Shown here: in pieces, positions 6,601 through 63,342 of the stretch
Numbering within the stretch: the stretch's first letter is position 1
Layout: each line of letters opens with the position of its first letter
From: a virus
Taxonomy: Duplodnaviria; Caudoviricetes
Virus record (IMG/VR): IMGVR_UViG_3300033121_001593
Location: 64,001 to 128,000 of that record
Strand: one strand, 5' to 3'
Length of the DNA: 64,000 nucleotides
Notes under the pieces: model-generated
Told to the model about the DNA's origin: nothing
The model's database searches: none
Seen by the model: only the letters and a program-made list of their open reading frames with translations
Made by a program: the position numbers and the translations under genes

Positions 6601-9600
6601 TGTAAGGCTTGATCGGGTCCCGCCCAGCATCGAGAGCCAGCCGGCCTGCATAGCGGAGGCCATGGCTGCCATCTGCGTGACGACGTTCAGGTACATCGTA
6701 TCGAATGACAGGGACACAGCCGGGATCAGGAGGACGGTCAGTAGATTGACCAGCCACAGGTAGAATTCACCGAACCGGGTCTGCACCGTCGTCGTCATGG
6801 CGAAGGCGTGACCCTGGACGCCAGTTGACATGGCCTGCCAGGCGGTAAGCGCCCCGGTCACGAAGGTCTGAGTAGCCGTCGTGGCGTTGGTCTGGTAGGC
6901 CAGGTCTTGAGCGGTCAGGGTTGCATAGAACGTTTGTTGCCCGGTCGTGGTCGCCGTCTGGTAGGCCAGGTCCTGCGTTTGGAGCGTCGTGTAATTCGTG
7001 GCCGCGCTGGTCTGAAGCGCGGTCAGGCCCGTGCTCACGGTCGTATTGAGCGCGTCCATCTGCGTTGTGGCGTTCAGGTTCATGGCGGCCAGCGCCGTGT
7101 CACCGGCGAACTGCACCGCCTGAAAGCCCGTGCTGGCTGCCGCGGCGGTCGCGGTCAGGGCGTCCGTGGTGATCGGGGCCAGGCCCTCGACGCCGGTCTT
7201 CCAGCCCGCCGTCATCGTTTGCCCGGCCACAACCGGAGCCGTCGCCATTTCGGTGAAGGTCGAATTCCAGCCGGAGAGCATCGTATCGAGATCGGTCTGG
7301 ATCACGGCTGACGAGCCGGATACGGTGGCCTGAAGATCATCGAATGTCTGCCGCGGCCCGGTCACTTGCCCGGCGAGGCCGTTCATCTTTGCCAGAACGC
7401 CGTCGATTAGGCTGGTGGTAGCCGTGTCCGTACCGGTCTGCGCCGCCTGCGCTGCGGTGGTCACCCCGCCAAGGGCAAGGGCCACCTCAGAGCTTGCCGC
7501 CGCCGCCGCCGGGGGTAGGTTCCCGAAGGCCGCAATCATCTGGTCGGAATAGCTCTGCGTCGTTCCGGCCGCCTGCGTCATGTAGGTGCTTGAGTAGCCG
7601 GCGAAGTCGGTGTAGCTCGTCTTGGCGGTATCTACGGAGCCGGCCACGGCGGTGAGCGACCCGCCGATATTGGCCGACGCGGTCGAGGCCGAAGTCGCCA
7701 TGTTACCCGACGCCGTAGAGAGCGCCGTTGAAGCGGACTCGGCCGACCCCTTGATTTTGTCAGCGCCGAACTCGAAGCCGCGTGAGACTTCCTCCCAGGC
7801 CGGCAGGGCGACGCCCGGTATGCGGTTGGCGATCCCGGTCACCGAGTCGTAGATAGCCCCGAACGCTCCGAGGATGATATTCCCGATCCCGTTAAAGATA
7901 CCGGCGATCCCTTCTTTGAAGGCTTCGAAGGCGGTTAGACCGGCCTTCGTCGCCCCGTCCATGTCGCCCTCAAAAATCGACTTGACCACCGAGATAAAGG
8001 AGTAGAAGATCGAGCGCAGTACGTCAAAGACGCCGGCCAGGACCTGGCCGAAGCCGCGAATGATCGTGCCGGCATTGCGGAAGATACCCGACAGGATTTC
8101 GCCAAAGGCGACCACCGTCGCCACGACCGAGCCGCCGATCACCCCCAGGATGATACCGGAGACGGTCAGTAGGGCGTCCCGCAGCCACAGCAGGCCGGGC
8201 TTCGCTACTTCGAGCGCGTCCTTCAGGCCCTCGAAGGCCCCGCTGAGAGCCTCCTTGATCGGGGCCAGGGCAGTTGAGACCGGGCCTAGCTCAAGCAGGA
8301 ATTCCTGGAAGCCGGTCTTGATGTCGCCGAAGACCTTGGCCAGTAGATCGAATACGGGTTGAAGGGCCGTGGCGATAGGCTCGATCTTAGCCTTGATCTC
8401 GTCAATCGCTCCCGTTATCGAAGCCTTGATCTCAGTGAACTTGGTGACGATCCCGGTCTTTAGCTGGTCCCAGGACGGCAACGTTGCGCCGGTCAGATCG
8501 TTGATCGTATTGACCACCGAGTCGTAGATGCCGCCGGCGACGTTATCGACCACGACCAGCAAGCCCTCAAGGCTGGCGACGCTGCCGGTCACGTAATCTT
8601 CTACGGTCTGCTTGGCGGCTGCCCATGCGCCGGCCCAGTCACCAGCGAGCAGGGCCTTGACGGTGGTCACGATCCCCATGAACGTGTTATTGAACGTCTC
8701 GACTTGACCGGTCACGAAGTCGATGACGCCGCCGATGATCTCAGGCAGTCGCTCGATGGTTTGGGCGACTAGCTCGCCGAATACCTTGGAGATAACGACG
8801 CCGACGATTGCGATCACTTGCCCGATCACCGAGGCCGGCCCGACCAGGCCCATGAGCGCCTGGCCAAGCTCGTCGAACTTGGGCTTGAGTAGGGCGATTT
8901 CGTCGCCAAAGCCTTTGGCCGCCGCGCCGATCCTGTCAAACGTCGGCTTGAAGACCGCCTCTAGTTGCGCAATCGCTCCCTCGATACCGGACATGATGGC
9001 ATCGGCCTTGGATTGCCCAAACAGGGTGACCAGGGCCTTGTTGAACCCGGTATAGAGATGCGAGGCCAGAACCGCGCCGGCCTCGTTGATCGAATTCTCC
9101 ATGCGGGCGATACCGGGCAGGATGGCGGACGCCATCAGCTTGTCTACAAAGATTTGCCCCTTACCGCCCTCCTGGAAGCCGGCCGCCAAGCCCTGCACCA
9201 GTAATACGCCGGCCCCCAGGATCGTCGGCACGCCGGTTCCAATGATCCAGCCAATGATCTGGCCTAACAGATCGGCAAGCTGCGGGATCACATTAGCGGC
9301 GAACGTGGTCACCCAGGTGATTGCGTTCTCGGCCCACTGGTAGAAGGCGTTTCTGATATCGGGTGCCCGGTCGCGTACCCAGCCGGCGATATTCTCGAAC
9401 AGCAGGCCAAAGGTCTCGGAGACGATTGCGGAGATGCCTTCGAAGGCGGCCCGGAAGCCCGACCAGTCGGAGAAGCCGGTCGAGAAAAAGTCGCTCAGGT
9501 CATCCTTCATGGCCTGCGTATTCTCGACCAGAACGTCGTTACCCTTTGATATCACGTCGCCAAGCGCGGCCACGAATGAGACGATCCCGGCCAGGACCGG

Positions 9601-11526
9601 ATTCATGAGCGGGTCGATCTCGGTCAACCATTCGGAAAGGGAGTGACCGTCCTCGACCACGGCTTGCAGGGCCTGGCGGAAGTTGGCGAATTGCCAGGCC
9701 GCGCCCTGGATCGGCTTGGGTAGTTTGTAGAGCGACTCGACCGTCAGATTGCCCGTCTCTGAAGCGTCTTTCAAATAGGTCTTGAAGCCGGCGAAGCCGT
9801 CCTTAGCGCCCTGAACGAATTTATCCGTGGCCTCCTTGAGGCCAAACAGGTTCTTCTTGTAGGCGACGCCGAATACCATCACAGCGCCGGCCGCAATCGC
9901 CAGCGGGCCGGCCAGGGCGGCGATAGCCGGGACCTGGACCCCGAACAGGCCCAGCAGCGGGCGGAGCGTGTACTGCGCGCCCTTCAGGGCAAAGACCAGC
10001 GCCAGGAGCGCCGTGGTGATAGCCTGTACCGGTTCGGGCATACTCTCGAACGCCTTTTGAACCGCGTCGAGACCGGTACGCAGCGGGGGCAGAAAAGACC
10101 GGATCAGGGGAATAATGACCTTATCCATAAGCTGCGTCAGGGGCGGAATAAGGGTCAGGCCGATCTCGATCCCCAGGACGTTGAAGGCGACTTTCAGGCG
10201 CTTGATCTGTGTTTCGAGGCTCTTGTATTGCTCGGCCCGCGCGGCATCGACCGAGCCGTCGATACCCTTTTTCCACTCGGCAAACGCCTCGGTGCTCATG
10301 GTGGTTTCGTTGGCGGTCAGGGCCATGACGCCGCCGATGGCGCGCACGTTGCGGAACAGGTCCGCTATACCCTCATTCGAGCCGTAGAATTCTTTGACCA
10401 GCTTCTGCTGCGCCGGGGTGGTCTTGGCAAGCTCGCCCTGGTACTGCGTCATCGTCGCGTTGAGCTTGTCCATCGACAACCGCTTCTTTTGGGCAGCGAT
10501 AGACCCTTCGCCCTCTTTCTCGGTGATCTTGGCCAGTTCCTGCTTGTAGATATCCATCTGGTCAACGAGGAACGGGTACTTGAGGCTCATGGTCGTCTGA
10601 GCCTTGGACATCCCGCCGATAGACTCGGTCGACTCAAAGACCGTGGTCGTGATAGCTTTCAGGGCGGGGATCATTCCGCCCATGCCCTCGACCATCGTCG
10701 TGCCGGATGAATAGCCCAGCTTTTCGATCACCCCTTGCAAGCTCTCGGAAGGCTTGATTAACTGCGTGAAGATGGCATTAAGCCGGGTCGCGGCCTGCTC
10801 GGCGGTTAGGCCGGTCTGTGTCATCTGCGCGAACGAGTACCCGACTTCTTCGAGCGGGATACCCAAGTTGGACGCCATCGGGGCCAGCCGGCCCATCACG
10901 TTTGCTAGATCGGGCAGCGTCACCAGGCCCGACTGAACCACCTTCAGGAATACGTCGGTGATATGGCCGGCCTGAGACGCGTCCTGCCCATAGGCCCGCA
11001 TAGTAGAGATGAGGAGCTTAGAAACCTCGTCAACGTCCGCCAGGCCAGCGCCGGCCGCGCGGGACGACGCCTGCATCACGGCCATGGCCTCGGACATTTG
11101 CACGACGCCGTCCTTGGTTTGGACAGCGACCGACTTGACCTTCTCGTCTAGCTCAAGGCCAGCAGAGGCGACTAGGTACAGGGACTTGGCGACGTTATCC
11201 GCCGACGAGCGAGTCGTCAGGGCGAATGAGATCACGTCGTCCTGTAGCTTCTGGAATTGCTCCTCCGGCAAGTGAGCCACCGAGTTGACGTTGCGCATCG
11301 ACTGTTCAAAGGTCATTGCGCTTTTGACCGAGGCGACGCCGATCCCCACAATCGCGGCTGACGCGATCCCCATAGCGGAGTTGAGGCCCCCGGCGGCGTT
11401 CTGCCCCCCTTTGGCGACGCCGTTCATTTGCTGGGAAACCGAATTAAGGCCCTGTGTCGCGCCGGCGGTATTCGCGCCGACCATGACTAGCATACCAGCT
11501 ACAGGAGTAGCGCCCGGTCCCAGCAT
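661..11526 (-). CDS. Tape measure protein (giant, 3621 aa)
   Basis: N-terminal TP901-type TMP core (FEQSMRNVNSV...AEQAATRLNAIFTQL). Ala/Gly-rich helical repeats and 'SPSR' motifs. Lies after the tail chaperones. Confidence 0.93.
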   Translation of the reverse strand: MLGPGATPVAGMLVMVGANTAGATQGLNSVSQQMNGVAKGGQNAAGGLNSAMGIASAAIVGIGVASVKSAMTFEQSMRNVNSVAHLPEEQFQKLQDDVISFALTTRSSADNVAKSLYLVASAGLELDEKVKSVAVQTKDGVVQMSEAMAVMQASSRAAGAGLADVDEVSKLLISTMRAYGQDASQAGHITDVFLKVVQSGLVTLPDLANVMGRLAPMASNLGIPLEEVGYSFAQMTQTGLTAEQAATRLNAIFTQLIKPSESLQGVIEKLGYSSGTTMVEGMGGMIPALKAITTTVFESTESIGGMSKAQTTMSLKYPFLVDQMDIYKQELAKITEKEGEGSIAAQKKRLSMDKLNATMTQYQGELAKTTPAQQKLVKEFYGSNEGIADLFRNVRAIGGVMALTANETTMSTEAFAEWKKGIDGSVDAARAEQYKSLETQIKRLKVAFNVLGIEIGLTLIPPLTQLMDKVIIPLIRSFLPPLRTGLDAVQKAFESMPEPVQAITTALLALVFALKGAQYTLRPLLGLFGVQVPAIAALAGPLAIAAGAVMVFGVAYKKNLFGLKEATDKFVQGAKDGFAGFKTYLKDASETGNLTVESLYKLPKPIQGAAWQFANFRQALQAVVEDGHSLSEWLTEIDPLMNPVLAGIVSFVAALGDVISKGNDVLVENTQAMKDDLSDFFSTGFSDWSGFRAAFEGISAIVSETFGLLFENIAGWVRDRAPDIRNAFYQWAENAITWVTTFAANVIPQLADLLGQIIGWIIGTGVPTILGAGVLLVQGLAAGFQEGGKGQIFVDKLMASAILPGIARMENSINEAGAVLASHLYTGFNKALVTLFGQSKADAIMSGIEGAIAQLEAVFKPTFDRIGAAAKGFGDEIALLKPKFDELGQALMGLVGPASVIGQVIAIVGVVISKVFGELVAQTIERLPEIIGGVIDFVTGQVETFNNTFMGIVTTVKALLAGDWAGAWAAAKQTVEDYVTGSVASLEGLLVVVDNVAGGIYDSVVNTINDLTGATLPSWDQLKTGIVTKFTEIKASITGAIDEIKAKIEPIATALQPVFDLLAKVFGDIKTGFQEFLLELGPVSTALAPIKEALSGAFEGLKDALEVAKPGLLWLRDALLTVSGIILGVIGGSVVATVVAFGEILSGIFRNAGTIIRGFGQVLAGVFDVLRSIFYSFISVVKSIFEGDMDGATKAGLTAFEAFKEGIAGIFNGIGNIILGAFGAIYDSVTGIANRIPGVALPAWEEVSRGFEFGADKIKGSAESASTALSTASGNMATSASTASANIGGSLTAVAGSVDTAKTSYTDFAGYSSTYMTQAAGTTQSYSDQMIAAFGNLPPAAAAASSEVALALGGVTTAAQAAQTGTDTATTSLIDGVLAKMNGLAGQVTGPRQTFDDLQATVSGSSAVIQTDLDTMLSGWNSTFTEMATAPVVAGQTMTAGWKTGVEGLAPITTDALTATAAAASTGFQAVQFAGDTALAAMNLNATTQMDALNTTVSTGLTALQTSAATNYTTLQTQDLAYQTATTTGQQTFYATLTAQDLAYQTNATTATQTFVTGALTAWQAMSTGVQGHAFAMTTTVQTRFGEFYLWLVNLLTVLLIPAVSLSFDTMYLNVVTQMAAMASAMQAGWLSMLGGTRSSLTSMRSEVNSQMSGMVGELRGYAGEMAGVGAAIGQGLADGIESKIGAAIAAAIALVQAAIAAAWAAAMAQSPSRIMMELGGYFGEGFSIGVEDQGPDAAGAAAGIVAGAVQAAKDAAGIHSPSTAMAGVGWDFIMGLLQGIKKGDKEAILAVTELMDKIMGTISNIVKALGDLGGFKVQAMDLSGFTAQIKQVVAAFKVLAGVYAKKDSGLDSAKAVLEPLGEIFSEISSIVSGVKSLFDPELLKGTLTDAKKVIDLLIGAAKLLVTGFAAAAKALKDEAWPEAVALASVAGSIAGNIKSVVEALNSMGDVAVFGSMKAPIDNMVAFVVDLVRSFAVAGGKIDAKAKTAAGEFASTVAAVVDPVIDAVDALNKLAGFTFRPIGPVAEKIANAMLGLSQKMRWIAEKLGPEAIGFSKAGAGLVKEVVEPWSKAIDTLDDLARFVFVAIGPAAELIANAMQGLAGKLAGLATDLGPEMVANAKAGAALMTAVVAPWKAAVDALVSLASFVFRPVGPVGEQIKGAVYGLARKLAFLSQQLGPQMVEDARTGAALMAEVVKPWQDAVDTLVSLASIVFRPVGPTAERISDAVFGLARKLTWIVDRLGPVLMAAAKDGAALMADVLKPWEDAVKVFVALSEFVFRPIGPTAEKIKRAVIGLSSKLRWIVDRLGPEIMTLAKEGALLMAAVLVPWEDAIKTFTALAEFVFRPVGPTAERIKNAVKGLASKLRWVTLWLGSDVMALAKDGAALMASVLAPWEDAIKVFSAMAEFVFRPVGPAAERMKNAVKGLARKLNFLVDGLGPDMIARAKIGAALMIEVLAPWEDAVKTFSAMAAFIFRPIGPISSRMVHMVEGLARKLARMADTLGPDTIALAKDGAALIAAVLEPWQDAVETLDVMADYVFRPVGPIADKIIFSVGSLALKLADVAFHIGPQAIALAKEGAELFSAVLVPWQDAITTLDAMAGYVARPILGIADKIILAVGGLALKLAQVAFHLGPQTIALAREGAALLSDVLTPWQDAITVLGALAGFIYRSVDKSAKDVTAAMILLANALAGMADDIGMGTLKKAAKVGALLSEVLAPWETAMKVADNMRAFRIMPDFVDKMVRFGRQWIDIVDQLGRIILTLNQDGLAAVEAFAGVLTALLDGLTVAMEIVERGDFPMPDAGIWDRFVAWVWGIFQFFYDKVQELMNDPENTLGFDPVLQFAGALESIMNALSAAVDLARNFEFVLPDAEVFLNFENWVWGIFQFFWAKVQELWNDPDRIIGFDPVVAFAEALSSILGALSSALELARNFEFVLPDPELWAAFVTWVWGIFQTFFTLVQTLWSDPTRIIDFVPVEAFGSALESIMGGLSAGLELARGFVFTAPPADQWSAFVTWVWGAFQTFYALVQTLWLDPASIIEFDPVESFGSALESIMGGLLASMELITGFSFTPPDPGQWDAFIAWVIAAFQTVYDYVESLVTDPTTALNFDPEESFGSALESIMGGLMATIDLITNFVWTPPDPELWSDFIGWVLTFMDDLRLRIIAAFPMDAGAAAAFAPVAAFGDAVEAVTGGLQTALEFFSNLAGYIPVSETTINTFLGNVEFLIDLVGTYATQHLDPARVIALQRFEAAISATAGGLSDALDLFEGLASLDDRTIDWLANAGAGTGTNTGAAMQVIGYLFQAIVQTMTRFGTEVATLSLTSWTPTANAFFTALETVIGILSDALGLFTDLGTSGMPSTAEIEAFVAAIMQVFTTFNTGLASVTTPLHTAILAVQTELSVNLAGWLATNGAASVGHLFYDAAVLVPTAIAAGLGSVSLVQPSIDLRQQVVDNVHGWFSYHAAALDGRLFFEDGSNVVLSIGAGMLDQEDYIYQVAWDIGQAIINGLEGSLQIGSPSRLAMEAGWFTSDGLALGLLAGKDNAVSAAREVADAVAAEYTSLGDRPSVLWPNLSSTSPTFAQNNTIEHEVVIRVEGGDALPKMTDYEMRELARELGRQLKQGV
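1970..3200 (-). repeat. About 6 x 204-nt (68-aa) tandem repeat in the TMP
   Basis: Unit F(D/V)PV..F..ALESIM..L...W..F..WVWG.FQ recurs every 204 nt (e.g. ~2476, 2680, 2884, 3088). Confidence 0.9.
3330..5490 (-). repeat. About 11 x 195-nt (65-aa) tandem repeat in the TMP
   Basis: Unit FVFRPVGP.AE.I..AV.GLA.KL...LGP....AK.GAALM..VL.PW.DA recurs every 195 nt (4291, 4486, 4681, 4876, 5071). Confidence 0.92.
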
Positions 11527-23411: not shown

Positions 23412-23653
23412 TAGGCCGCGTCCTCAGCCGCAGGCTCAGCGACCGCGGCCTGCTCGCCATCTGCGGCCAGGTCGATCAGCACACCGGCGGCCTTGGCGCG
23501 CTTCAAGCAGCGGTCAAGGATCACCATGGCCAGCTTGACATCGTCGTCCAGGTCAAGCTTGGCGAGCATCGCGCCGTCAACCTTCAGCGCCCGTGTCAGC
23601 AGGATCATCGCAACTTGTAAGCGCCACATCAGGAGTCTCTCCTTTAGCCCCAT
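23411..23653 (-). CDS. Hypothetical protein
   Basis: Start MGLKERLL overlaps the TerL stop. Confidence 0.5.
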   Translation of the reverse strand: MGLKERLLMWRLQVAMILLTRALKVDGAMLAKLDLDDDVKLAMVILDRCLKRAKAAGVLIDLAADGEQAAVAEPAAEDAA

Positions 23654-25155
23654 GCGCCGGCCCGTTTCTTTTGAGCCGGCTTCTCTTGGGGGCAGAACAC
23701 CATCACCACCGCGTCGCCCGCGTCCGGCGACCGCCCGATCCGCTTCTTGACTTCTTCCTTCTCCTCGATACGGATCAGCCCGCTCGAAGTGGTGCGCCAC
23801 ATCGGCGCAGTCAGGTCACCGATCAGTTCGTCGTCGGGCGGGAGGGCGATATCCAGCCCCGTCTGCGGGTCCAGGGCCTCACGCATCGCCCACCAGGCCA
23901 GGCTGCGCCGGTTGAGAAAGCCTAGCTCGCCTGACTTGTCCTTAATGTCAGTGCGGGTTGAAGCGTTGAACGCATCGACCGTATAGCCTAGCTCACGCAG
24001 CCGATCTACCACGCCAGCGCCCATATTGAGCACGTCCACGACGGCGATACCGCGCTTCTGCGCCGTGAGCACACCGACCACGAAGCCGGTGGTTTGCATA
24101 GTATCCTGTTTTCGGAAACGGCGCAACTCCGAAATAACGTTCTCGAAGCGTAGGGCTAGAATCGTGCTGTCCGCGCCATAGCGGGCCACGTCCACGCCCA
24201 CGCCAAAGAACACCAGCACGGGCTTCTCATCCTGCCAGGCGTACCACCGCTCGTTAGCCGCCTCGACCCAGGCCAGCGGGATCACGGCATCCTCCGAGCC
24301 TTCGCTGAAGTTGCCTAGCACGCGGTTCTGGAAGACGGGCGACGACTCGGTCCACTGCGTGCGGCGGGCCTCCACCCACTCGGCGCTGATCCGGCCGGCC
24401 GCCACCGCCTCCTCGACTTTGACGTGCCGCACCCACCAGTCACCATAGCCGGGCTTACGGGCCTGGATATCGTAGAAGCGGCCAGCCGGCCCGCCCGGCG
24501 TCGAGACGCACAGCCACCAGGCGTCGCCGGTGCTCATCGCGCCTTCGGCGGCGTCCCAGGTCTCAGAGGGTATCGTCTTGGACTCGTCAAAGATGTAGAG
24601 AATGTTATCGGCGTGCGCGCCTTCGATCAGGGCGGGCTGGTTCGAGGCCAGGGCGAACGCCTCGCCCGTCGCCAGCTTGAGCGAGAGCATCAGTAGCTCA
24701 CGGCCTTCGGCCAGCGGGCCACGCCCGACCTTGGCCCAGTCCACGCGGCCGGCCCACTTGCGTATCTCCGGCCACAGGAACTTGGTTAGCTGCCGCCAGG
24801 CGCTCGCCGTGGTCGGCACCTTCCAGTCCTCCCCGTCGCGCGTCAGGGCGAACCAGAGCACGATCCAGGCACAGAGGGACGACTTGCCGAGTCCATGGGG
24901 TCCGCGCACGGAGACGCGGCGGCGCTCCTGCAGCGCCGTCATGATCTCTAGCTGATAGGCGCTCGGCCCCTCGCCCTCGCCCCAGCGAAAGCAGTCGTGC
25001 ACGAAGCCAGCGGGGTCATTGCGATAGCGGGCCTTGAATTCGGCGCGCACCTCCTCATTCTGTGAGCCGGCCTTGGCGGTCTGGCGCTTGACGCGGCCCA
25101 CTTGGGCGGGGGGCGCTTTGCGGTAAGCGGCGGCGACATGCTTATTCGTCGGCAT
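23644..25155 (-). CDS. terL: Terminase large subunit
   Basis: Walker A GPHGLGKS, Walker B YIFDE, coupling motif STP, RNase H-fold GVDVAR...SPDAGDA. Confidence 0.95.
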   Translation of the reverse strand: MPTNKHVAAAYRKAPPAQVGRVKRQTAKAGSQNEEVRAEFKARYRNDPAGFVHDCFRWGEGEGPSAYQLEIMTALQERRRVSVRGPHGLGKSSLCAWIVLWFALTRDGEDWKVPTTASAWRQLTKFLWPEIRKWAGRVDWAKVGRGPLAEGRELLMLSLKLATGEAFALASNQPALIEGAHADNILYIFDESKTIPSETWDAAEGAMSTGDAWWLCVSTPGGPAGRFYDIQARKPGYGDWWVRHVKVEEAVAAGRISAEWVEARRTQWTESSPVFQNRVLGNFSEGSEDAVIPLAWVEAANERWYAWQDEKPVLVFFGVGVDVARYGADSTILALRFENVISELRRFRKQDTMQTTGFVVGVLTAQKRGIAVVDVLNMGAGVVDRLRELGYTVDAFNASTRTDIKDKSGELGFLNRRSLAWWAMREALDPQTGLDIALPPDDELIGDLTAPMWRTTSSGLIRIEEKEEVKKRIGRSPDAGDAVVMVFCPQEKPAQKKRAGAWG

Positions 25156-31195: not shown

Positions 31196-32647
31196 CTAGT
31201 CACCATCCTCCTCATTTGCGCCGGCCACGTTTGCGCCCTCGAAGGCCGCAATGAAGTGCATGAACTGAGACGACCAGCCGGTGACCTCAGCGGTCCAGAC
31301 TCCCGCATAGCTCACGCCGCGGCTATGGCCCGAAATGTCGGTGATGTAGTTGCGGGCGGCCCATGGCTCCGGCATCCGTCCGCTATCATCCATATCCTGC
31401 GAGTCGCTGAAGACGATCAGCCGGTCAGCCGGGGCACCGCGCCGATCCGCCTTGATGAAGTCCAGGGCCTGGCGGGTGAAGATACCACCGCCGCCCAGAC
31501 GCCCGGAGGCGCGCCTGATCTCGTCCATCAGGGCAAAGCCGCGCCGACGCTTCAGTAGCTCGGTCTGGTGCGTCTGCCCCAAATCGCTGCCGGCAGTAGC
31601 ATAGACCTGGACCTTGACCGCCTGCTCGGCCGCCAGCATGGCCAGGGCCGCGGCGGCGTCCAGCCAGGAAAGGTCGCTCTGCCCGGAGAGCCTGCCGTGC
31701 TCCATCGATCCCGATACGTCAACAACGAGCACGGTCTCGCCGGCCAGCTTGGGGGCGGTCGCCAGCGCCCGGAACATCATAGCCTCGATCTCGCCCTGCC
31801 AGCGGGGCGCTGCCCGGCCGGCGGCGATGAAGTTGATCGGCAGCAGCCAGCGCGCCGGGGCCGTCTCGAAGTAGGCCGCGATGGCGGCCCGGTCCACGCC
31901 CTCCCGCTCCATCAGGGCCAGGTTACGCAGGAAGGCCAGGCCGGGCAGCCGGCGCTCGGCCATCAGGCGCTCGAACGTCTCACGCTTGTTCGCTCCGGCG
32001 CTCAGGGCCACCTCCCAGGTATCGGGGGGCGTAACATGGCCGGCCTTTAGCTCGGCCAGGGCGCGGGCGTTGCGCGGCGTCGGGACCGGGTGCAGCAGGC
32101 GCGCGGCGTCTCGCAGGGTGACGGCGTGCCCCTTGCCCTGGTACTTGGCCAGTTGATAGTCATCGAACTGAGCAAAGGCGTGAGCCAGCCCGGTCTTGAG
32201 TTGGCTGGCCAGCGGCGCGCGCGGCTTGCCGGCGGGGGTCGGGTTTTCCATGGCGTAGAGCGTGAGGGCCTCGGTGATGCCGTCGGCGCGCCCGACGATC
32301 ACGGGTAACAGCTCGGCCACCAGCGCCCGGTGGGCGGGGTACTTGAGCATCTGGATTGCCACGAACAGGGGAACGTGGCGCAGGCCCTGTTCGTTGCGCG
32401 CCTGCCAGGCCAGACGGGCGACGACCGCCGGCTCGACCTCAGGCACCAGCTTGCGGATCACGTCCGCGGTCACCGCGCCGCGCTCATAGAATTTGTCCTC
32501 CCAGAGCAGGTTAGAGAGGATCGCTCGCGCCAGCAGGGCGTCCGATCCCTGCAGGGCGGCCGGCGCGCCCGCGCCTCCGGCCACGCGCGCCTTGGGGTCC
32601 ATCGCGCCCTTGCGGCTCGGCTTGGGGGTTGGCTTGTTGGTTCGCAT
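31196..32647 (-). CDS. rsr: Ro60/Rsr RNA-binding protein (TROVE + vWA domain)
   Basis: Motifs 'LLWEDKFYE', 'ARNEQGLRHVP', 'FDDYQLAKY', 'PDTWEVALSAG', 'LRNL', vWA MIDAS 'VDVSGSM' and 'FSDSQD'. Confidence 0.93.
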   Translation of the reverse strand: MRTNKPTPKPSRKGAMDPKARVAGGAGAPAALQGSDALLARAILSNLLWEDKFYERGAVTADVIRKLVPEVEPAVVARLAWQARNEQGLRHVPLFVAIQMLKYPAHRALVAELLPVIVGRADGITEALTLYAMENPTPAGKPRAPLASQLKTGLAHAFAQFDDYQLAKYQGKGHAVTLRDAARLLHPVPTPRNARALAELKAGHVTPPDTWEVALSAGANKRETFERLMAERRLPGLAFLRNLALMEREGVDRAAIAAYFETAPARWLLPINFIAAGRAAPRWQGEIEAMMFRALATAPKLAGETVLVVDVSGSMEHGRLSGQSDLSWLDAAAALAMLAAEQAVKVQVYATAGSDLGQTHQTELLKRRRGFALMDEIRRASGRLGGGGIFTRQALDFIKADRRGAPADRLIVFSDSQDMDDSGRMPEPWAARNYITDISGHSRGVSYAGVWTAEVTGWSSQFMHFIAAFEGANVAGANEEDGD

Positions 32648-45861: not shown

Positions 45862-47055
45862 TCATTCATAGTCGCCGGCCCGCCCGACCAACTCGACCAG
45901 AAAGGCGATGGTGGCCTGAGCGTCATTGTAGACGGTGAACTCGTCGCGCCGCGGCCAGGAGATCGGGTTAGGCGGGGCGACCGCGTGCATCGAGTCGTAC
46001 AGGCCCTGGGCGGCCCCGTGGTGCCCGTCGTCCTGGCGGACGGTGACCTTTTTCTCCCGGCCCAGCTTGACCGAGAATACCGCCATGCAGGCCGGATCAT
46101 CGCTGCTACCGCCGCCCCAGCGTGCGCCCTTCAGGCTCGTGTAGCTGATCGACTTATGCGCCCAGTCGGCAAAGTACAGGCCCTTGCCCAAGGCCCAGCC
46201 GTTTGAGTATGACGGGCGGATAACTAAGCCCTGCGTCATGATCGACCAGAAGTTCGGCGTCTTGCTACCGTGAAAGAGCAGCCGGCCTTTTTCGCCGGGC
46301 TTCCAGGCGTCATACTTGGCCTGCGTGGCGAAGTGGATCACCCGCCAAATCCGGCCGATGTTCGGCTTGCTCTGAGCCTCGACCAAGGCCAGGACTTGCG
46401 CCCGCTCAGCCGGCGTCGCCTCCCGGATATCGAGGCCGATGGCGTCCAGCACCGTTTGATCGGCGGCGGTAGGCTGCGGGCGTGCCCTCAGGCTGGCGCG
46501 TAGCTGATCGACTAAGGCTTGCTCGTCGGCGAGCTTTGCGCCGATCACATGCCGCGCCGCGCCGGCCGGCAGTAGCTCGTCGGCGACCTTGCGCATCTTA
46601 CGGGGCAAGACCCGCCATAGCTCGACCAGGCCGGCGTTGACGGCGCTGACCGTCATCTGCCCGTTGAGGCCGCCGATCCGGTCCAGGATGCGCTGCGCCT
46701 CGACTAGCTGCGCCTCGGTGATGCTCTCAGCGTCCGAGTAGCTGGCGGCGATTGAGACGCCCGCCTTTTGCTGCAGCCAGTCCACCAGCCAGCCGACCGA
46801 GCCGGCCAGGGGCTTGAAAGCGACCGCGTCCAGCGTGCGCTTTTGCGCCGTCATATCCCGATAATCGTGCTTCTCCCGCGTCCGAATCGTCGGGTTCCAC
46901 TCCGACATAGGGAATACCTTTGACTGGCCCGCCGTGCCCACCCGGCCCCAGCGCGCCGTGAAGGTCGATCCCGCGGGGTCGGCCTTCATCTCGTAGAATT
47001 TATTGGCGTTGGCGTCCGCCGCCACCTTGATCCCGTACCAGAAATCTGTCGTCAT
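45862..47055 (-). CDS. Poly(ADP-ribose) polymerase-like ADP-ribosyltransferase (WGR + helical + catalytic domain)
   Basis: 'NANKFYEM...ARWGRVG' WGR domain. H-Y-E triad in LLFHGS, GKGLYFAD and DEFTVYN. Confidence 0.9.
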   Translation of the reverse strand: MTTDFWYGIKVAADANANKFYEMKADPAGSTFTARWGRVGTAGQSKVFPMSEWNPTIRTREKHDYRDMTAQKRTLDAVAFKPLAGSVGWLVDWLQQKAGVSIAASYSDAESITEAQLVEAQRILDRIGGLNGQMTVSAVNAGLVELWRVLPRKMRKVADELLPAGAARHVIGAKLADEQALVDQLRASLRARPQPTAADQTVLDAIGLDIREATPAERAQVLALVEAQSKPNIGRIWRVIHFATQAKYDAWKPGEKGRLLFHGSKTPNFWSIMTQGLVIRPSYSNGWALGKGLYFADWAHKSISYTSLKGARWGGGSSDDPACMAVFSVKLGREKKVTVRQDDGHHGAAQGLYDSMHAVAPPNPISWPRRDEFTVYNDAQATIAFLVELVGRAGDYE

Positions 47056-47856: not shown

Positions 47857-48663
47857 TTAGCGCCAGCCGGCGCTCGCTCGGTCGGTGATTTGCTCGATGG
47901 CGACACGTAGATTGTCGCTGATTTTTTCGGGCGGCAGATCGAACGTCTTTGACCGTTCCACGTACTGCGCCGCCCAGGCCGTCAGGGCGGCGACCTCGCC
48001 GGCCTCCACCACGCGCCCGCCAAAGCCAAGGCGCTTGGCCGTCGCCAGATTCGTCGCCTCACGCATACACTCGACCGGCCAGGCGGGGTTCCAGGTCAGG
48101 GCGTCGAAGTCCAGCGACGGGGGATTGCCCGATGACAGGCTCTCCAGCGATGATAGCGCCGGCACCAAGAACATCAGCCAGTCCTTGACCGTCGCGCCCT
48201 CCGGCCAGCCCTGCCGTGCCTGGTTGCGCGCCTGGCTGGCGTAAGCCTGCACCAGGGCCGACCGGCGGTGGATCATGTACCAAAGATGAGCCACCGACTG
48301 GCCCAGCGGGGTCGTTACGTAGAGCAAGGGGCTGGCCAGCCATTCCAGGGCGGTCGGGTTGGACCGCAAGACCAGGCCCAGGAACTTGGTTAATTCCATG
48401 CCGGCGGCGTCGATTGTCGCCGGCACGCTCAGGCCCAGGACCGCCCAGTCCAGCTTGTCCAGGACCTCACGCGTCGCCGTCCGGTCAACCCGGAAGTACC
48501 AGGCGGTCGGGGGAACGTACACGAAGCGCAGATCGTGGTCGCTCGTCTCCGCGCCCAGGCCGCGCGCCCGTGAGCCGGCGTCTACCGCATAGATCACGGT
48601 GTAGCCCGTCGCCTGCTCGATGGCCTGTAAAAGGCCCTTGATTTCGTCTCGATATGTCGTCAT
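47857..48663 (-). CDS. Pol-beta-superfamily nucleotidyltransferase (RlaP/YcgL-like)
   Basis: 'GSRARG....SDHDLRFVY' (GS..DxD), 'ELTKFLGL..SNPTALEWL.SP'. Confidence 0.85.
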   Translation of the reverse strand: MTTYRDEIKGLLQAIEQATGYTVIYAVDAGSRARGLGAETSDHDLRFVYVPPTAWYFRVDRTATREVLDKLDWAVLGLSVPATIDAAGMELTKFLGLVLRSNPTALEWLASPLLYVTTPLGQSVAHLWYMIHRRSALVQAYASQARNQARQGWPEGATVKDWLMFLVPALSSLESLSSGNPPSLDFDALTWNPAWPVECMREATNLATAKRLGFGGRVVEAGEVAALTAWAAQYVERSKTFDLPPEKISDNLRVAIEQITDRASAGWR

Positions 48664-50451: not shown

Positions 50452-50769
50452 CTAGAAGCTGGCGAAACCGTTGCTGCAGTCGGTCATCCAGCGGCTGGTG
50501 GCCTCGGCGCTGAATGCCTGCGCCTGTGCCTCGGCGTCGGCCTCGAAGGTGCCCTCGGTGCCGAATTCTGCGAACATGGCCGCCATACGGGCCATCTCGG
50601 CCTCGATGACTTCGGTCTGCTCGGCGTCGGCCTCGGTGGCGATACCGCTCTCGATGATGAACCAGCCGGTGGCGGTCTGGAAGGTCTGCTCGGTGCGGGC
50701 AGCTTGGCGGGCTGCCTGGCGGGTGGCGATGATTGCGGTCCAGTCCTGGGTGGTGGTTTGGGTGGTCAT
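50452..50769 (-). CDS. Early protein, Leu-free (MTTQT start, first gene behind P8)
   Basis: 105 aa, 0 Leu, 1 Val. Confidence 0.75.
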   Translation of the reverse strand: MTTQTTTQDWTAIIATRQAARQAARTEQTFQTATGWFIIESGIATEADAEQTEVIEAEMARMAAMFAEFGTEGTFEADAEAQAQAFSAEATSRWMTDCSNGFASF

Positions 50770-50937: not shown

Positions 50938-50977
50938 ATATTGCTACTTGACAAACTGAATGATATCATGATATAAT
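50938..50977 (+). promoter_or_regulatory. Promoter P9 (cca), same variant as the rtcB promoter
   Basis: ATATTGCTAC-TTGACA-N18-TATAAT. Confidence 0.82.
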
Positions 50978-51024
50978 GGGCTTAGTTAGATAAGCCAAGC
51001 CGAACCGAAAGGACGCCCGCCGAA

Positions 51025-52347
51025 ATGAAGATCAGCCCCGCAGCAGAGACCATCAGCCGAATAATCGAGACCGCAGGCGGAAGCGCCTGGATCACGGGCG
51101 GGGCCTGCCGCGACGAGATCATGGGCCGGACGCCTCGCGACTTCGACATCGAGGCTTTCGGGATCACGAAGGAAGCGGCCTGTGAGGCTATCCGGGCCGC
51201 AGGCTTCGCCTGCAAGATCGCCGGAGCCGCCTACAGCATTATCATCGCCACGGTGGACGGCGAGGATATCGAGATTAGCATCAGCGCCGGCACGATTGCC
51301 GAGGCTGCCGCCCGGCGCGACTTCACCGCCAACGCCATCTACTTCCGCCCGGCCACCGGCGAGTGGGCCGACTCCTTCGGCGGCCGCGCCGATATCGAGG
51401 CCGGCATCATTCGAGCCACGCCCGGCTTCGCTCAGGACCCCGGCCGCATGATGCGGGCCGCCCGCTTCGCCGCCCGCTTCGGCTGGACCATCGAGCCGGC
51501 GACGCGTGACATGATCCGGGCCATGGCCGGTCGTATGAGCGAAGTGGCCACGGAGCGCATCTGGCCGGAATTCGCCAAGGCTTTCGAGGCCGACCGCCCC
51601 GGCGACTTCATCCGGGCCATGGCCGAGATCGGCATCATGGGCCACTTCCCCGAAATCGCCGCCATCTGGGACTGCCCGCAGGACCCGGCTTGGCACCCTG
51701 AGGGACCGACCGGCCCCCACTCCGCTCACACGATGGACGCCGCCGCCGCCATCTGCCGGCGCGACGGTATCACAGGCGAGGATCGGATCGCCTTCATCGC
51801 CGGAGCCATGGTGCACGACTTCGGCAAGGCTACGACGACGGTGACGCGGGAAGACGGGCGCATCGCCAGCCCCGGACACGCCGAGGCCGGTATCGAGATC
51901 GCCGCCCGCTTTTTCGCCCGCTGCGGCATCGCCGGCAGCCCGGTGGCCGAGCGAGCCATCGCCATGACGGCTGAGCACATGAGCCACACGGGCGAGATCA
52001 GCCCCCGCACGGTGCGCCGGATCGCCGCCCGCATCGCCCGCCATGGCGCGACGATCAGCGACATCGCCCGGATCATCGAGGCCGACGCCTCCGGCCGCCC
52101 GCCCATCCCGGCGGGGATGCCTGAGGGTGGCCGGCGCATGATCGAGATCGCCGCCTCCATGGCGATTGTGGACGCCGCCCCCGTGGCCATCATCATGGGC
52201 CGGCACTGCATCGCCGCCGGCATGGCCCCCGGTCCCCGCATGGGCCGGATCGTGCGAGCCGCCTTCGAGGCTCAAATCGACGGGGCCTTCGAGGACGAGG
52301 CCGGCGGGATCGCCTGGATCGCCGAACACGCCGCCGAAATCGCATAG
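51025..52347 (+). CDS. cca: Class II tRNA nucleotidyltransferase (CCA-adding) with HD domain; leucine-free
   Basis: GG.xRD, DFD, RRDFTAN, DP.R..RA.RF, ERIW.E, HPEG, HDFGK, GHA..G motifs. No Leu in 440 codons. Confidence 0.92.
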   Translation: MKISPAAETISRIIETAGGSAWITGGACRDEIMGRTPRDFDIEAFGITKEAACEAIRAAGFACKIAGAAYSIIIATVDGEDIEISISAGTIAEAAARRDFTANAIYFRPATGEWADSFGGRADIEAGIIRATPGFAQDPGRMMRAARFAARFGWTIEPATRDMIRAMAGRMSEVATERIWPEFAKAFEADRPGDFIRAMAEIGIMGHFPEIAAIWDCPQDPAWHPEGPTGPHSAHTMDAAAAICRRDGITGEDRIAFIAGAMVHDFGKATTTVTREDGRIASPGHAEAGIEIAARFFARCGIAGSPVAERAIAMTAEHMSHTGEISPRTVRRIAARIARHGATISDIARIIEADASGRPPIPAGMPEGGRRMIEIAASMAIVDAAPVAIIMGRHCIAAGMAPGPRMGRIVRAAFEAQIDGAFEDEAGGIAWIAEHAAEIA

Positions 52348-52374
52348 GGCAGCCGCAAGGCTGGGGGGAGGCCC

Positions 52375-52447
52375 AACCTTAAATTTTTTGAATATCCCCA
52401 AAGAGGCCCCTTTTTTGCTTGACAAATTGAACGACCTGATATATAAT
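52375..52447 (+). promoter_or_regulatory. Early promoter cassette P10
   Basis: AACCTTAAA...TTGACA-N17-TATAAT. Confidence 0.88.
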
Positions 52448-61590: not shown

Positions 61591-61955
61591 CGGCTGGCCA
61601 ACCGCTCCCCGGCCCGTATCGGCCGGACGGGAATTACATCCACTTTGACACGCCAGACGCCGGCCTACCGACGCTGCTGGCCCGGCTTTACGACACGTCA
61701 GACCGCAGCCCGGAGGCGCTTGTCGCCACCACGCGTCTGATGGCCGCGTCCTGGGAGATGTACCAGGCCCTGCTAGCCGAGGACGACTTTAACATGCGCG
61801 TCGCCGCCGTTACGAGTAGCATGGACGCGGGCGACCCCGCTTCATCCTGGCAGCCCGCCCTGGATGAGCTGACCGCTTTGGCGAGGCGCGTCACCCGCCT
61901 ACGCCGGGACGCCCTGGCCAAGGCACAAGGCCGCCCGGTCAATATTGCTACTTGA
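61587..61955 (+). CDS. Paralog of 60710-61108
   Basis: LPGPY...EALVATTRLMAASWEM...ALAKA. Confidence 0.62.
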   Translation: MTAGQPLPGPYRPDGNYIHFDTPDAGLPTLLARLYDTSDRSPEALVATTRLMAASWEMYQALLAEDDFNMRVAAVTSSMDAGDPASSWQPALDELTALARRVTRLRRDALAKAQGRPVNIAT

Positions 61956-61979
61956 CAATCTGAATGAGTAATATATAAT
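61942..61979 (+). promoter_or_regulatory. Promoter P13 (rtcB), same variant as the cca promoter
   Basis: ATATTGCTAC-TTGACA-N16-TATAAT. Confidence 0.8.
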
Positions 61980-62022
61980 AGGTGTATTGAGCAAGTTATC
62001 CGCAGCGAAAGGAACCGACCCA

Positions 62023-63342
62023 ATGAATACCCATCTTCTGCTTAACCGATACCGAGGCCAGGCGAACTATGGCGAAATCGCCAAGGACGCGGCGAAGGCC
62101 GCCCAAGCCAATCCCGCCATGACCGAGGCTGAGTTACTGGCCTACATCGAGTCGCGCTACGCGCCGGCCACCCTACTGCAGCCGATGAAGCAGGCCGCGC
62201 CGCTGGCGGTATTCGGCGCTGACCTGATCGACCCCGGCGCGTTTGCGCAGATGTACTCCGTCTTGCGCCTGCCCGTGGCGGTACGCGGGGCCTTGATGCC
62301 GGACGGGCACCAAGGGTACGCGATGCCCATAGGCGGGGTGGCGATCCTACGGGACGCCGTCTCGCCCTCATTCGTTGGCTATGACATCGGCTGCATGATG
62401 ATGGTCTCGACCTTCGAGATCACGCCGCAAGACTTCGCCGGCAGCCGCCCGGCGCTGGCCGCGGCCCTGCGTAACGTTACGTCGTTCGGCCTGGGCGCGA
62501 TGACGCCGGCTGCACAAGGCCGGTTCGATCACCCGGTCATGGACGATCCCCGCTGGTCGGAGACGGCCATCTTACGCTCGCTGAAGCCCCTGGCCCGTGA
62601 GCAGTTAGGCAGTTCGGGCGGTGGCAATCATTTCGCCGATCTGTGCGAGGTGACCTGGGCGACAGGGCGCGACGCGCAGATTGCCCTCATGACGCACTCC
62701 GGCAGCCGGGCCGCCGGTCATAAGCTGGCGACGCACTATGTCTCTGTTGCCCGGAGAGAGACGGCCGCCATCGCCCGTGGGATCGAGCCAGGCTACGAGT
62801 GGCTGCCCGACTCCAGCGAGGCCGGCCAGGAATATCTGGCCGCCATGCAGTTGATGGGCGACTACGCGCGGGCCAATCACGAATGTATCCACGCCGCCTA
62901 TGCCGAGGCCATCGGAGTCCGACCGGACTGGACGGTCTGGAACCGGCACAACTTCGCCTGGGTCGAGGAAGAAGGGATCGTACACCGCAAGGGCGCAACG
63001 CCGGCCCGCGCTGGCGATATCGGGATCATCCCCGGCAGCAGCGGAACCCCGTCCTATATTGTCCGAGGCAAGGGCAACGTCGCGTCGATCAATTCGTCTT
63101 CTCACGGCGCAGGCCGGCCCTTCTCACGCAGTGAGGCCAAGCGCCGGCACAACGCCGGCCAAGTCGACGGCTGGATGACCGAGCACGACGTTCTGAGCTT
63201 CGGCCTGGCCCCCGACGAGACCTATGCCGCCTACAAGGATATCGCGGCCGTCATGGCGGCGCAGACCGATCTGGTCGATATCGTCGCCACGCTCATCCCG
63301 CGCGTCGTCGTCATGGGCGGGCCGGCCGACGACGGCGATTGA
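62023..63342 (+). CDS. rtcB: RtcB RNA ligase (2',3'-cyclic phosphate/5'-OH)
   Basis: MPDGHQGY.MPIGG, GYDIGC, GGGNHF, HSGSR, HRKGAT, SHGAGR, DE..AYK motifs. Confidence 0.96.
   Translation: MNTHLLLNRYRGQANYGEIAKDAAKAAQANPAMTEAELLAYIESRYAPATLLQPMKQAAPLAVFGADLIDPGAFAQMYSVLRLPVAVRGALMPDGHQGYAMPIGGVAILRDAVSPSFVGYDIGCMMMVSTFEITPQDFAGSRPALAAALRNVTSFGLGAMTPAAQGRFDHPVMDDPRWSETAILRSLKPLAREQLGSSGGGNHFADLCEVTWATGRDAQIALMTHSGSRAAGHKLATHYVSVARRETAAIARGIEPGYEWLPDSSEAGQEYLAAMQLMGDYARANHECIHAAYAEAIGVRPDWTVWNRHNFAWVEEEGIVHRKGATPARAGDIGIIPGSSGTPSYIVRGKGNVASINSSSHGAGRPFSRSEAKRRHNAGQVDGWMTEHDVLSFGLAPDETYAAYKDIAAVMAAQTDLVDIVATLIPRVVVMGGPADDGD

Follow-up and report, generated by a model that had tools for sequence, protein, structure and literature searches.

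How a virus can come to encode an enzyme of tRNA metabolism in a long reading frame without a single leucine codon, and whether this tells us something about the tRNAs at hand when the enzyme is made, is the question raised by a gene in the phage DNA described here. The window, by which we mean the whole stretch of 64,000 nucleotides that was analysed, comprises bases 64001-128000 of a 143,318-bp IMG/VR virus record (63.6% G+C; CheckV 97% complete).

The gene and its predicted product

The gene, called cca here, encodes a protein of 440 aa (P0001) and ends in a TAG stop (Table 1). Judged by its sequence motifs and predicted structure, P0001 is a phage tRNA 3'-end enzyme in which a class II tRNA nucleotidyltransferase head is fused to an HD phosphohydrolase. 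Three Pfam domains were identified, a PolyA_pol head (PF01743, E 8e-15), a PolyA_pol_RNAbd domain at aa 155-213 (PF12627, 8e-12) and an HD domain (PF01966, 7e-07; 29.9 bits against a cut-off of 22). The residues of motif A (GGxVRD and DxD) in the head, namely G25, G26, R29, D30 and D41, do not vary across 104 homologs, and neither do R97, R98 and D99, which make up the RRD of motif B that is responsible for ribose recognition. The metal-binding H...HD...D residues of the HD domain are also present, with H224, H232, H264, D265, K268, H285, H318 and D354 invariant in the same 104 sequences. The AlphaFold2 model built from the alignment of these homologs has a mean pLDDT of 96.9, so that a normal fold is predicted without leucine, and its top fold matches in the PDB are class II tRNA nucleotidyltransferases. 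An enzyme of 440 residues that keeps its active sites and is predicted to fold while lacking the commonest amino acid is remarkable in itself, and offers a natural template for the design of leucine-free proteins.

Table 1. Features of the cca locus and neighbouring genes, numbered by position in the window
Feature	Position	Strand	Basis or remarks
WGR + PARP-domain protein, normal Leu (30)	45862..47055	-	
RlaP, RNA-repair-pathway nucleotidyltransferase, normal Leu (31)	47857..48663	-	
105-aa ORF of no known family, 0 Leu, 1 Val, 6 Ile, 8 Phe	50452..50769	-	Divergent from cca; own promoter at 50857-50829
cca promoter, TTGACA-18-TATAAT at 50948-50977 (12/12, upstream TG), inside extended box ATATTGCTACTTGACAAACTGAATG	50938..50977	+	Promoter scan
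Class II tRNA nucleotidyltransferase + HD phosphohydrolase gene (P0001, cca)	51025..52347	+	ORF, 0 Leu codons, three Pfam domains, AlphaFold2 model, fold matches
Nucleotidyltransferase head, aa 21-130: GGACRD, DFD (D39, D41), RRD (97-99)	51085..51414	+	PF01743; homolog alignment
S87/A88 junction, where homologs carry the BxA motif and the bulk of the flexible loop (PRRESKVGAGHRGF...), about 19 residues lost here	51283..51288	+	Alignments
Motif D template, QDPGR in place of EDxxR	51433..51447	+	Homolog alignment
HD domain, aa 232-322	51718..51990	+	PF01966
RtcB RNA ligase, normal Leu (32)	61987..63342	+	Behind the same promoter variant as cca

Absence of leucine codons

A recount of every codon in cca agrees with what an earlier note on this DNA had reported: there is no CTN or TTR, all nine valines are GTG, the serine codons (12 AGC and 4 TCC) include neither TCG nor TCA, and isoleucine, put there at about 57 residues, numbers exactly 57, of which 51 are ATC. 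TCT and AGT are missing from the serine codons as well, and the protein has 19 methionines and 92 alanines (72 GCC). The three family motifs that were said to be respelled, as TGGACRDEIMG, DPGRMMRA and MVHDFGK, are all found in the translation. When codon usage was computed gene by gene for the whole 143-kb genome, as the earlier note had proposed, cca proved the extreme outlier among 186 ORFs, with a binomial P of 2.3e-17 for zero leucines against a genome leucine content of 8.3%. GTG makes up 31% of the valine codons elsewhere in the genome, and nine out of nine in P0001 has a P of 2.6e-5.

It had also been claimed that the avoidance concerns codons and not a DNA motif, and a count by reading frame bears this out. 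In cca, leucine-type triplets are absent from frame 1 and occur 17 times in frame 2 and 34 times in frame 3, compared with counts of 32, 14 and 36 in the gene for RtcB and 30, 10 and 36 in the PARP gene. As the out-of-frame triplets of cca are at the levels of the control genes, the ban acts on codons and not on DNA words, and avoidance of a DNA motif is thus ruled out. GTC occurs at two sites in cca over all frames, although outside frame 1 its deficit does not reach significance. That the mRNA might shun CCA or ACCA was considered as well and is ruled out, since neither motif is avoided in the gene.

Relatives of P0001 and continuing selection

Among 5.8 billion proteins searched, eight relatives of P0001 (P0002-P0009) came up at 70-98% identity. 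They come from independent metagenomic samples of JGI, ENA and Logan, those of P0002-P0006 being wetland or soil, and have 0-1 leucine each; the sole leucine of P0007 sits in an N-terminal extension that is probably false. The next homologs after this core clade, at about 40% identity, have 36-66 leucines, and named bacterial homologs, such as those from Kouleothrix and Roseiflexaceae, have 52-56. Whether the loss of leucine is specific to a lineage had been asked in the earlier note; it is confined to a phage lineage and is not shared by the named bacterial homologs. Neighbouring genes on the contigs of four relatives (58-65% G+C) have a normal leucine content, including those for RtcB (30 leucines), RlaP and the PARP-WGR protein. 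The depletion of leucine is gene-specific, goes beyond the background of genome and family, and is conserved among the relatives.

At 45 alignment columns in which the outgroup has leucine, the core clade has isoleucine (41%), methionine (18%), phenylalanine (9%), valine (8%) and alanine (7%), and also tryptophan and cysteine, and the replacement of conserved leucines extends into the family motifs. Leucine is found in 1 of 54 variable hydrophobic columns of the core clade, whereas outgroup sequences of equal pairwise divergence have it in 27 of 50 (Fisher P 4e-10), and this indicates that leucine is kept out continuously by purifying selection. In our view the cca gene has very probably been shaped, and is still held, so as to be translatable without tRNA-Leu.

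When 1.84 billion cluster representatives were searched exhaustively with HMMER, the core clade came out as one isolated cluster, and further leucine-poor phage homologs were found at 41-46% identity that have 0, 2, 8, 19 and 20 leucines. The first of these, P0128, keeps the full flexible loop. Both leucines of P0210 are TTA, and six of the eight in P0139, whose gene lies near a WGR-PARP gene as in the window, are TTR. P0254, with 19, is encoded on a 204-kb phage-like contig, and P0189, with 20, is available as a protein sequence only. The neighbouring genes of these more distant homologs also have a normal leucine content. In a phylogeny built with FastTree the distant leucine-poor lineages nest around the core clade, but recoding all hydrophobic residues as a single letter disperses them. 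Leucine may have been lost once, with gradation, or on several occasions; the tree is compatible with either and cannot settle the matter.

Other collections yielded little. The locus had no megablast match among 50,697 phage records, and tblastn of P0001 gave only matches below 31% identity. Pattern scans of IMG/VR, run both with P0001 and with the alignment of the clade, brought up no relatives, and a metagenome scan recovered no new close relative, returning one already known contig and distant homologs with normal leucine.

Synonymous codon signatures

The restriction extends to synonymous codons. In all seven of the leucine-poor lineages that were tested, threonine is preferentially written ACG, namely in 106 of 135 codons, compared with about 30% in their own neighbouring genes (P <= 0.002 in each lineage; combined P 1e-22); in outgroup homologs 43% of threonine codons are ACG. 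In the core clade serine is written AGC and TCN is avoided. Valine is avoided, or limited to GTG, only in the phage of the window and the two lineages closest to it: P0004 has no valine at all, and the leucine-poor genes of L003 and L001 use GTC normally. The positions of valine (GTG) in P0001 are mostly isoleucine (ATC) in P0004, and because GTG and ATC differ by two steps, GTG has been chosen and is no mere inheritance. The choice of ACG for threonine, AGC for serine and GTG for valine is beyond the reach of protein chemistry, and these signatures therefore point to particular tRNA species. The leucine-free state has been enforced by selection over long divergence and in several phage lineages, with limits on synonymous codons in addition.

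Which tRNA species these might be is less simple than was supposed. The earlier note had explained the valine codons by loss of the tRNA that reads GUC and GUU, and this part holds in one lineage only: GTC is in normal use in L003 and L001, and the other promoter-proximal early genes of the window phage prefer GTC or GTA and avoid GTG, so that the tRNA reading GUC and GUU is unlikely to be lost in general. A reading confined to class II tRNAs (Leu, Ser and Tyr) was also rejected as a poor fit, as AGC, read by a class II tRNA, is freely used for serine and tyrosine is low throughout the family.

Promoters, early genes and tRNAs of the phage

The cca gene stands directly behind a perfect promoter, and the extended box around it also precedes rtcB as a 25-mer with one mismatch at 61942 (24/25 identical). 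The motif of the early promoter cassettes, AACCTTAAA, was found 13 times in the window at up to one mismatch (11 exact), against 2.8 expected. The 14 first cistrons behind these AT-rich cassettes are poor in leucine (3.3% against 8.6%) and valine (4.0% against 7.4%), with isoleucine, phenylalanine and methionine not depleted, and 81% of their serine codons are AGY, against 35% (P 3e-14). Leucine is at normal levels in the second cistrons of these operons. In their choices for threonine and valine (ACC, and GTC or GTA, with GTG avoided) the first cistrons are opposite to cca, and for threonine so is the divergent leucine-free ORF, in which all 17 threonines are ACC. A single tRNA blacklist common to all early genes was accordingly discarded, since others choose ACC and GTC where cca has ACG and GTG.

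A cluster of tRNA genes lies outside the window, with tRNAs for Ile, Phe, Glu, Trp, Asp, two for Ala and perhaps one for Tyr. None of the phage's ten tRNA genes is for tRNA-Leu, and a complete CCA is not encoded in at least nine of the ten. The phage's own tRNAs could read 52% of the cca codons compared with 37% genome-wide, the highest value among 55 long genes.

Why the gene might lack leucine

The explanation that we prefer holds that at the moment when the enzyme has to act tRNA-Leu cannot be used, owing to a lesion at its 3' end which this enzyme would repair; we infer this as a plausible reading, if one somewhat short of probable. Selection on translation has cleared the reading frame of all six leucine codons, about 45 family-conserved leucine positions being rewritten as isoleucine, methionine, phenylalanine, valine or alanine, and the cca mRNA is therefore translatable without functional tRNA-Leu. 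At the time of need the 3' end of tRNA-Leu, and in some lineages that of further tRNA species, would be trimmed, extended or blocked; the HD domain would heal the tRNA end, the transferase head would re-add nucleotides, and ordinary leucine-containing phage genes could then be translated. Candidate agents are a host toxin or defence directed at the acceptor end (MenT/AbiEii-like, toxSAS-like, HEPN-like or Cas12a3-like) or a transient shut-off of host translation by the phage itself. This reading is plausible because only the 3'-end enzyme is purged, because narrow acceptor-end toxins exist, and because a CCA-adding enzyme can rescue cells from MenT3; with RtcB and RlaP not leucine-poor, the 3'-end enzyme is singled out among three RNA-repair genes. 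In its fullest form the proposal is of a self-immune restart switch, in which all tRNA-Leu and, depending on the lineage, some isoacceptors for threonine, serine and valine would be put out of action at the acceptor end by a host immune toxin or a phage shut-off, and the repair enzyme, its mRNA using only codons of surviving tRNAs, would be the one long protein that could still be made and would reopen translation. This larger scheme we put forward tentatively.

Several observations sit uneasily with a repair of damaged tRNA-Leu. A ban so absolute across phages of 49-65% G+C fits patchy host defences poorly. cca and rtcB have a common promoter variant, yet RtcB needs 32 leucines. The ACC of the 105-aa gene and the GTC of the early genes, opposite to the choices of cca, mean that no one tRNA blacklist fits all early genes. 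An enzyme of the core clade that may add only CC could not rebuild a full CCA by itself. The phage tRNA genes are without an encoded CCA, so that maturation of phage tRNAs would be a sufficient job for the enzyme. A rival explanation invokes scarcity instead of damage. Charged tRNA-Leu would be in short supply in starved or slow-growing hosts at the start of infection or under the huge demand of the phage, as would tRNA-Val and the tRNA-Ser that reads UCN, though to a smaller extent; the enzyme would have the ordinary task of maturing the phage's CCA-less tRNAs, and any gene that has to be expressed all the same would largely or wholly dispense with the scarce codons, by the logic of cognate bias, the documented depletion of amino-acid biosynthetic enzymes in their own product (PMC4209129). 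The composition of the first cistrons, in leucine, valine and serine alike, the phage tRNA genes without CCA and the large share of cca codons readable by phage tRNAs agree with scarcity. Slowness should exact only a small cost per codon, however, which should neither purge the last leucine from the EDPLRxLR and LHDxGK motifs nor hold the count at 0-1 across seven diverged lineages; other early and repair genes keep normal leucine, and there is no known reason for leucine in particular to be limiting. We regard scarcity as an unlikely cause, though one to be taken seriously.

T-even phages cleave a host tRNA-Leu soon after infection, and it is conceivable that the window phage itself disables tRNA-Leu early to stop host protein synthesis. 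Leucine-poor proteins of the first wave would be made in the gap, and the leucine-free enzyme would restore tRNA-Leu for the middle and late genes, in a translational time-lock that amounts to the best explanation with its agent named. A cause intrinsic to the phage would account for a ban that is constant across divergent phages, and for first cistrons that are leucine-poor when later genes are not. Against this, no phage-encoded inactivator of tRNA-Leu was found, the first-wave ORFs have no family matches, the second cistrons of the same operons have normal leucine, and a toxin and a repair enzyme acting together would run a futile cycle unless timed; we think it rather improbable. Causes at the level of protein or DNA, unrelated to tRNAs, are largely excluded, and to our minds very improbable. 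They would include a leucine-directed protease or binder, a DNA or RNA motif, a non-standard reading of leucine codons, and an ORF on the opposite strand (50986-52425), in register with cca and open for 479 codons. The open antisense frame and the normal fold that AlphaFold2 predicts without leucine could be said in their favour. The antisense frame is open because TTA, CTA and TCA are absent from cca, and such a constraint was rejected since it would forbid these three codons but not CTG, CTC, CTT or TTG. The frame counts, and the indifference of the gene to CCA and ACCA, stand against a nucleotide motif, and protein chemistry cannot produce the synonymous biases. Isoleucine, methionine and phenylalanine, which are chemically close to leucine, are moreover enriched. 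As for the genetic code, other phage genes carry leucine codons at conserved leucine positions, which indicates that it is standard.

Comparison with known systems

Damage to tRNA 3' ends, and its reversal, has precedents that lend substance to the repair of tRNA-Leu proposed here. The toxin MenT3 acts on tRNA-Ser alone, whose 3' ends it extends, and overexpression of the CCA-adding enzyme PcnA confers resistance to it (PMC11541572). This mycobacterial pair resembles the proposal in that a toxin blocks the tRNA 3' ends of one amino-acid family and a CCA-adding enzyme counteracts it; it differs in that the target is tRNA-Ser, the rescuer is the host's own enzyme, no phage is involved, and nothing is reported on the codons of the rescuer (PMC11541572). 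The abortive-infection toxin AbiEii has a seeming preference for class II tRNAs (bioRxiv 10.64898/2026.01.19.700257), FaRel2 selects tRNA-Gly and tRNA-Thr through their acceptor stems (PMC11559606), and Cas12a3 cuts off CCA tails.

T4 Pnkp and Rnl1 repair the tRNA-Lys that is cut by PrrC. Other phage answers to tRNA-targeting defences include phage tRNAs with altered anticodon loops (PMC10264068) and a tRNA-Lys that acts against PARIS (PMC11464382). Such systems, like the one suggested here, keep translation running by means of repair enzymes or tRNAs carried in the phage genome, but the tRNA is replaced or religated, and in none of these cases is the repair gene reported to avoid the affected codons. 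Cognate bias similarly fits a protein for synthesis in the absence of one amino acid or one charged tRNA; it is a modest statistical depletion in metabolic enzymes, whereas cca combines a complete ban with synonymous limits in a viral tRNA-end enzyme. Ivanova in 2014 and Borges in 2022 reportedly dealt with stop-codon-recoded phages in which early genes avoid the recoded codon. There too a codon class is absent from genes read before the phage alters decoding capacity, but that case involves stop codons and suppressor tRNAs, and cca lacks all sense codons of one amino acid without a sign of recoding. Full-text searches of the literature turned up no phage repair or translation gene described as lacking an amino acid. 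If inactivation of tRNA-Leu is the cause, cca would bring a new principle to the contest between phage and host, that of a gene immune to the very damage its product repairs, and codon holes in phage translation and repair genes could then be used to reveal computationally which tRNAs are attacked in uncultured phage-host pairs.

CC-adding or CCA-adding activity

The earlier note had called the product a CCA-adding/HD enzyme. The family motifs and the HD domain are as described, but the CCA-adding activity is doubtful. In alignments about 19 residues between motifs A and B, BxA included, are absent from P0001-P0008, and the Pfam match of P0001 to PF01743 is split into profile positions 1-63 and 85-126. 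The first residue of motif D is glutamate in 88 and aspartate in 8 of 96 outgroup sequences, and glutamine, aspartate or arginine in the core clade; D138 and R141 of this motif are retained in P0001. The flexible loop between BxA and motif B is required for the switch to ATP, in which a loop arginine and the leading residue of EDxxR form a pair that turns the pocket from CTP to ATP, and CC-adding enzymes have been described as marked out by a loop that is short or missing (PMC2910056; PMC3925840), although the length of the loop does not by itself settle whether an enzyme is CC- or CCA-adding (PMC3925840). With both the loop and the template glutamate missing, the label of CCA-adding is not secure for the core clade, and on these alignments its enzyme may add only CC and be unable alone to rebuild a full CCA. 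The core clade thus flags a possible phage enzyme of CC-adding type. In P0128 leucine is absent and the loop is intact, which indicates that the purge of leucine and the loss of the loop were independent events.

P0001 is like the class II tRNA nucleotidyltransferases in its head-neck-body fold (TM 0.6-0.7), in the GGxxRD, DxD and RRD motifs, in the aspartate and arginine of the template and in the HD residues; it is unlike them in having no leucine, in the missing BxA and loop residues, in the change of the template glutamate and in being phage-encoded. The best structural matches of the P0001 model are PDB 3WFO-3WFS, titled 'tRNA processing enzyme' (2014). These appear to be the CC-adding enzyme of Aquifex aeolicus, an identification that rests on PMC3925840. 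This enzyme, the top structural match, likewise has a short or deleted loop; it differs in that identity is only 17-20% and in that the activity of P0001 is a predicted one.

Other features of the locus

Pfam gave no family for 16 of 20 neighbouring ORFs, and within the window there was neither an Rfam match nor a tRNA gene. The WGR-PARP gene is also near the leucine-poor enzyme gene in L001, L004 and L035, and the phage encodes a Ro60/TROVE protein as well. The only hint of a host comes from the terminase, which has a similarity of 48-51% to those of Streptomyces and Actinoplanes phages. One of the phage tRNAs is odd in having an anticodon loop of six bases, TGACGA.

Alterations in the nucleotidyltransferase

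The core-clade enzymes, that is the Leu-free protein and its phage relatives at 70-98% identity, lack the flexible loop together with the BxA motif, a stretch of about 19 aa, and their EDxxR motif has lost conservation of its template Glu. In the CTP-to-ATP switch the flexible loop and the template Glu act as the two partners; because both are altered, the core-clade enzyme may, to judge from its sequence, be limited to CC addition. At least nine of the ten tRNA genes in the phage cluster lack an encoded CCA, with ends such as ACC|TAG and AC|TAG. One tRNA-like gene of this cluster is a near copy of the tRNA-Phe gene and has a 6-nt anticodon loop, TGACGA, which is Val-GAC-like; a 97-nt 'tRNA-Arg' called there by ARAGORN was not confirmed by Rfam.

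Leucine depletion in homologs and first cistrons

More distant phage homologs, at 41-46% identity, contain between 0 and 19 Leu, and in those on contigs L034 and L035 eight of the ten leftover Leu codons are TTA/TTG and not CTN. Depletion is also seen in 14 promoter-proximal first cistrons, where Leu (3.3% versus 8.6%) and Val (4.0% versus 7.4%) are reduced and Ile, Phe and Met are not, while Ser is encoded by AGY in 81% versus 35% of cases (P = 3e-14). Many of these proteins start with MTTQTT, and the composition pattern recurs in weaker form on L001, the contig of a relative. The antisense ORF in register with the Leu-free gene is open simply because the sense frame has no TTA, CTA or TCA, and nothing indicates that it is a real gene.

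RNA-repair genes and shared promoter

The Leu-free gene and rtcB have in common an extended promoter box, ATATTGCTACTTGACAA(A/T)CTGAATG, of which two looser copies lie at 1429 and 23740 of the whole record. Together, the TROVE ORF, RtcB, RlaP and the tRNA-like RNAs make up an RNA quality-control and repair tool-kit carried by the phage. Four phage contigs, one of them distant, encode a WGR + PARP-catalytic-domain protein close to their Leu-poor nucleotidyltransferase gene.

Coordinates of features
Feature	Location	Strand
3621-aa ORF, biggest gene in window	window 661-11526	-
Terminase large subunit	window 23644-25155	-
First ORFs after AACCTTAAA / TTGACA-TATAAT cassettes	window 28787-58332 and beyond	
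TROVE (Ro60) match, 483 aa	window 31196-32647	-
WGR + PARP	window 45862-47055	-
WGR + PARP	L001 4097-5257	
WGR + PARP	L004 5089-6279	
WGR + PARP	L035 2042-3229	
Promoter box, Leu-free gene	window 50938-50962	
Promoter box, rtcB	window 61942-61966	
Antisense ORF, 479 codons	window 50986-52425	-
Site of the missing flexible loop and BxA motif	window 51283-51288	
EDxxR site	window 51433-51447	
tRNA cluster (Ile, Phe, Glu, Trp, Asp, Ala x2, possibly Tyr), outside window	genome 32004-38290 = L006 2004-8290	
tRNA-like gene with TGACGA loop	L006 6730-6800	
Leu-poor homolog, 0 Leu	L033 842-2179	
Leu-poor homolog, 2 Leu	L034 1193-2545	
Leu-poor homolog, 8 Leu	L035 4726-6141	
Leu-poor homolog, 19 Leu	L036 8001-9458	

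The phage's large terminase subunit shares 51% identity with that of Streptomyces phage TurkishDelight and 48% with that of Actinoplanes phage phiAsp2, a similarity that hints at the host and is the sole pointer to it.
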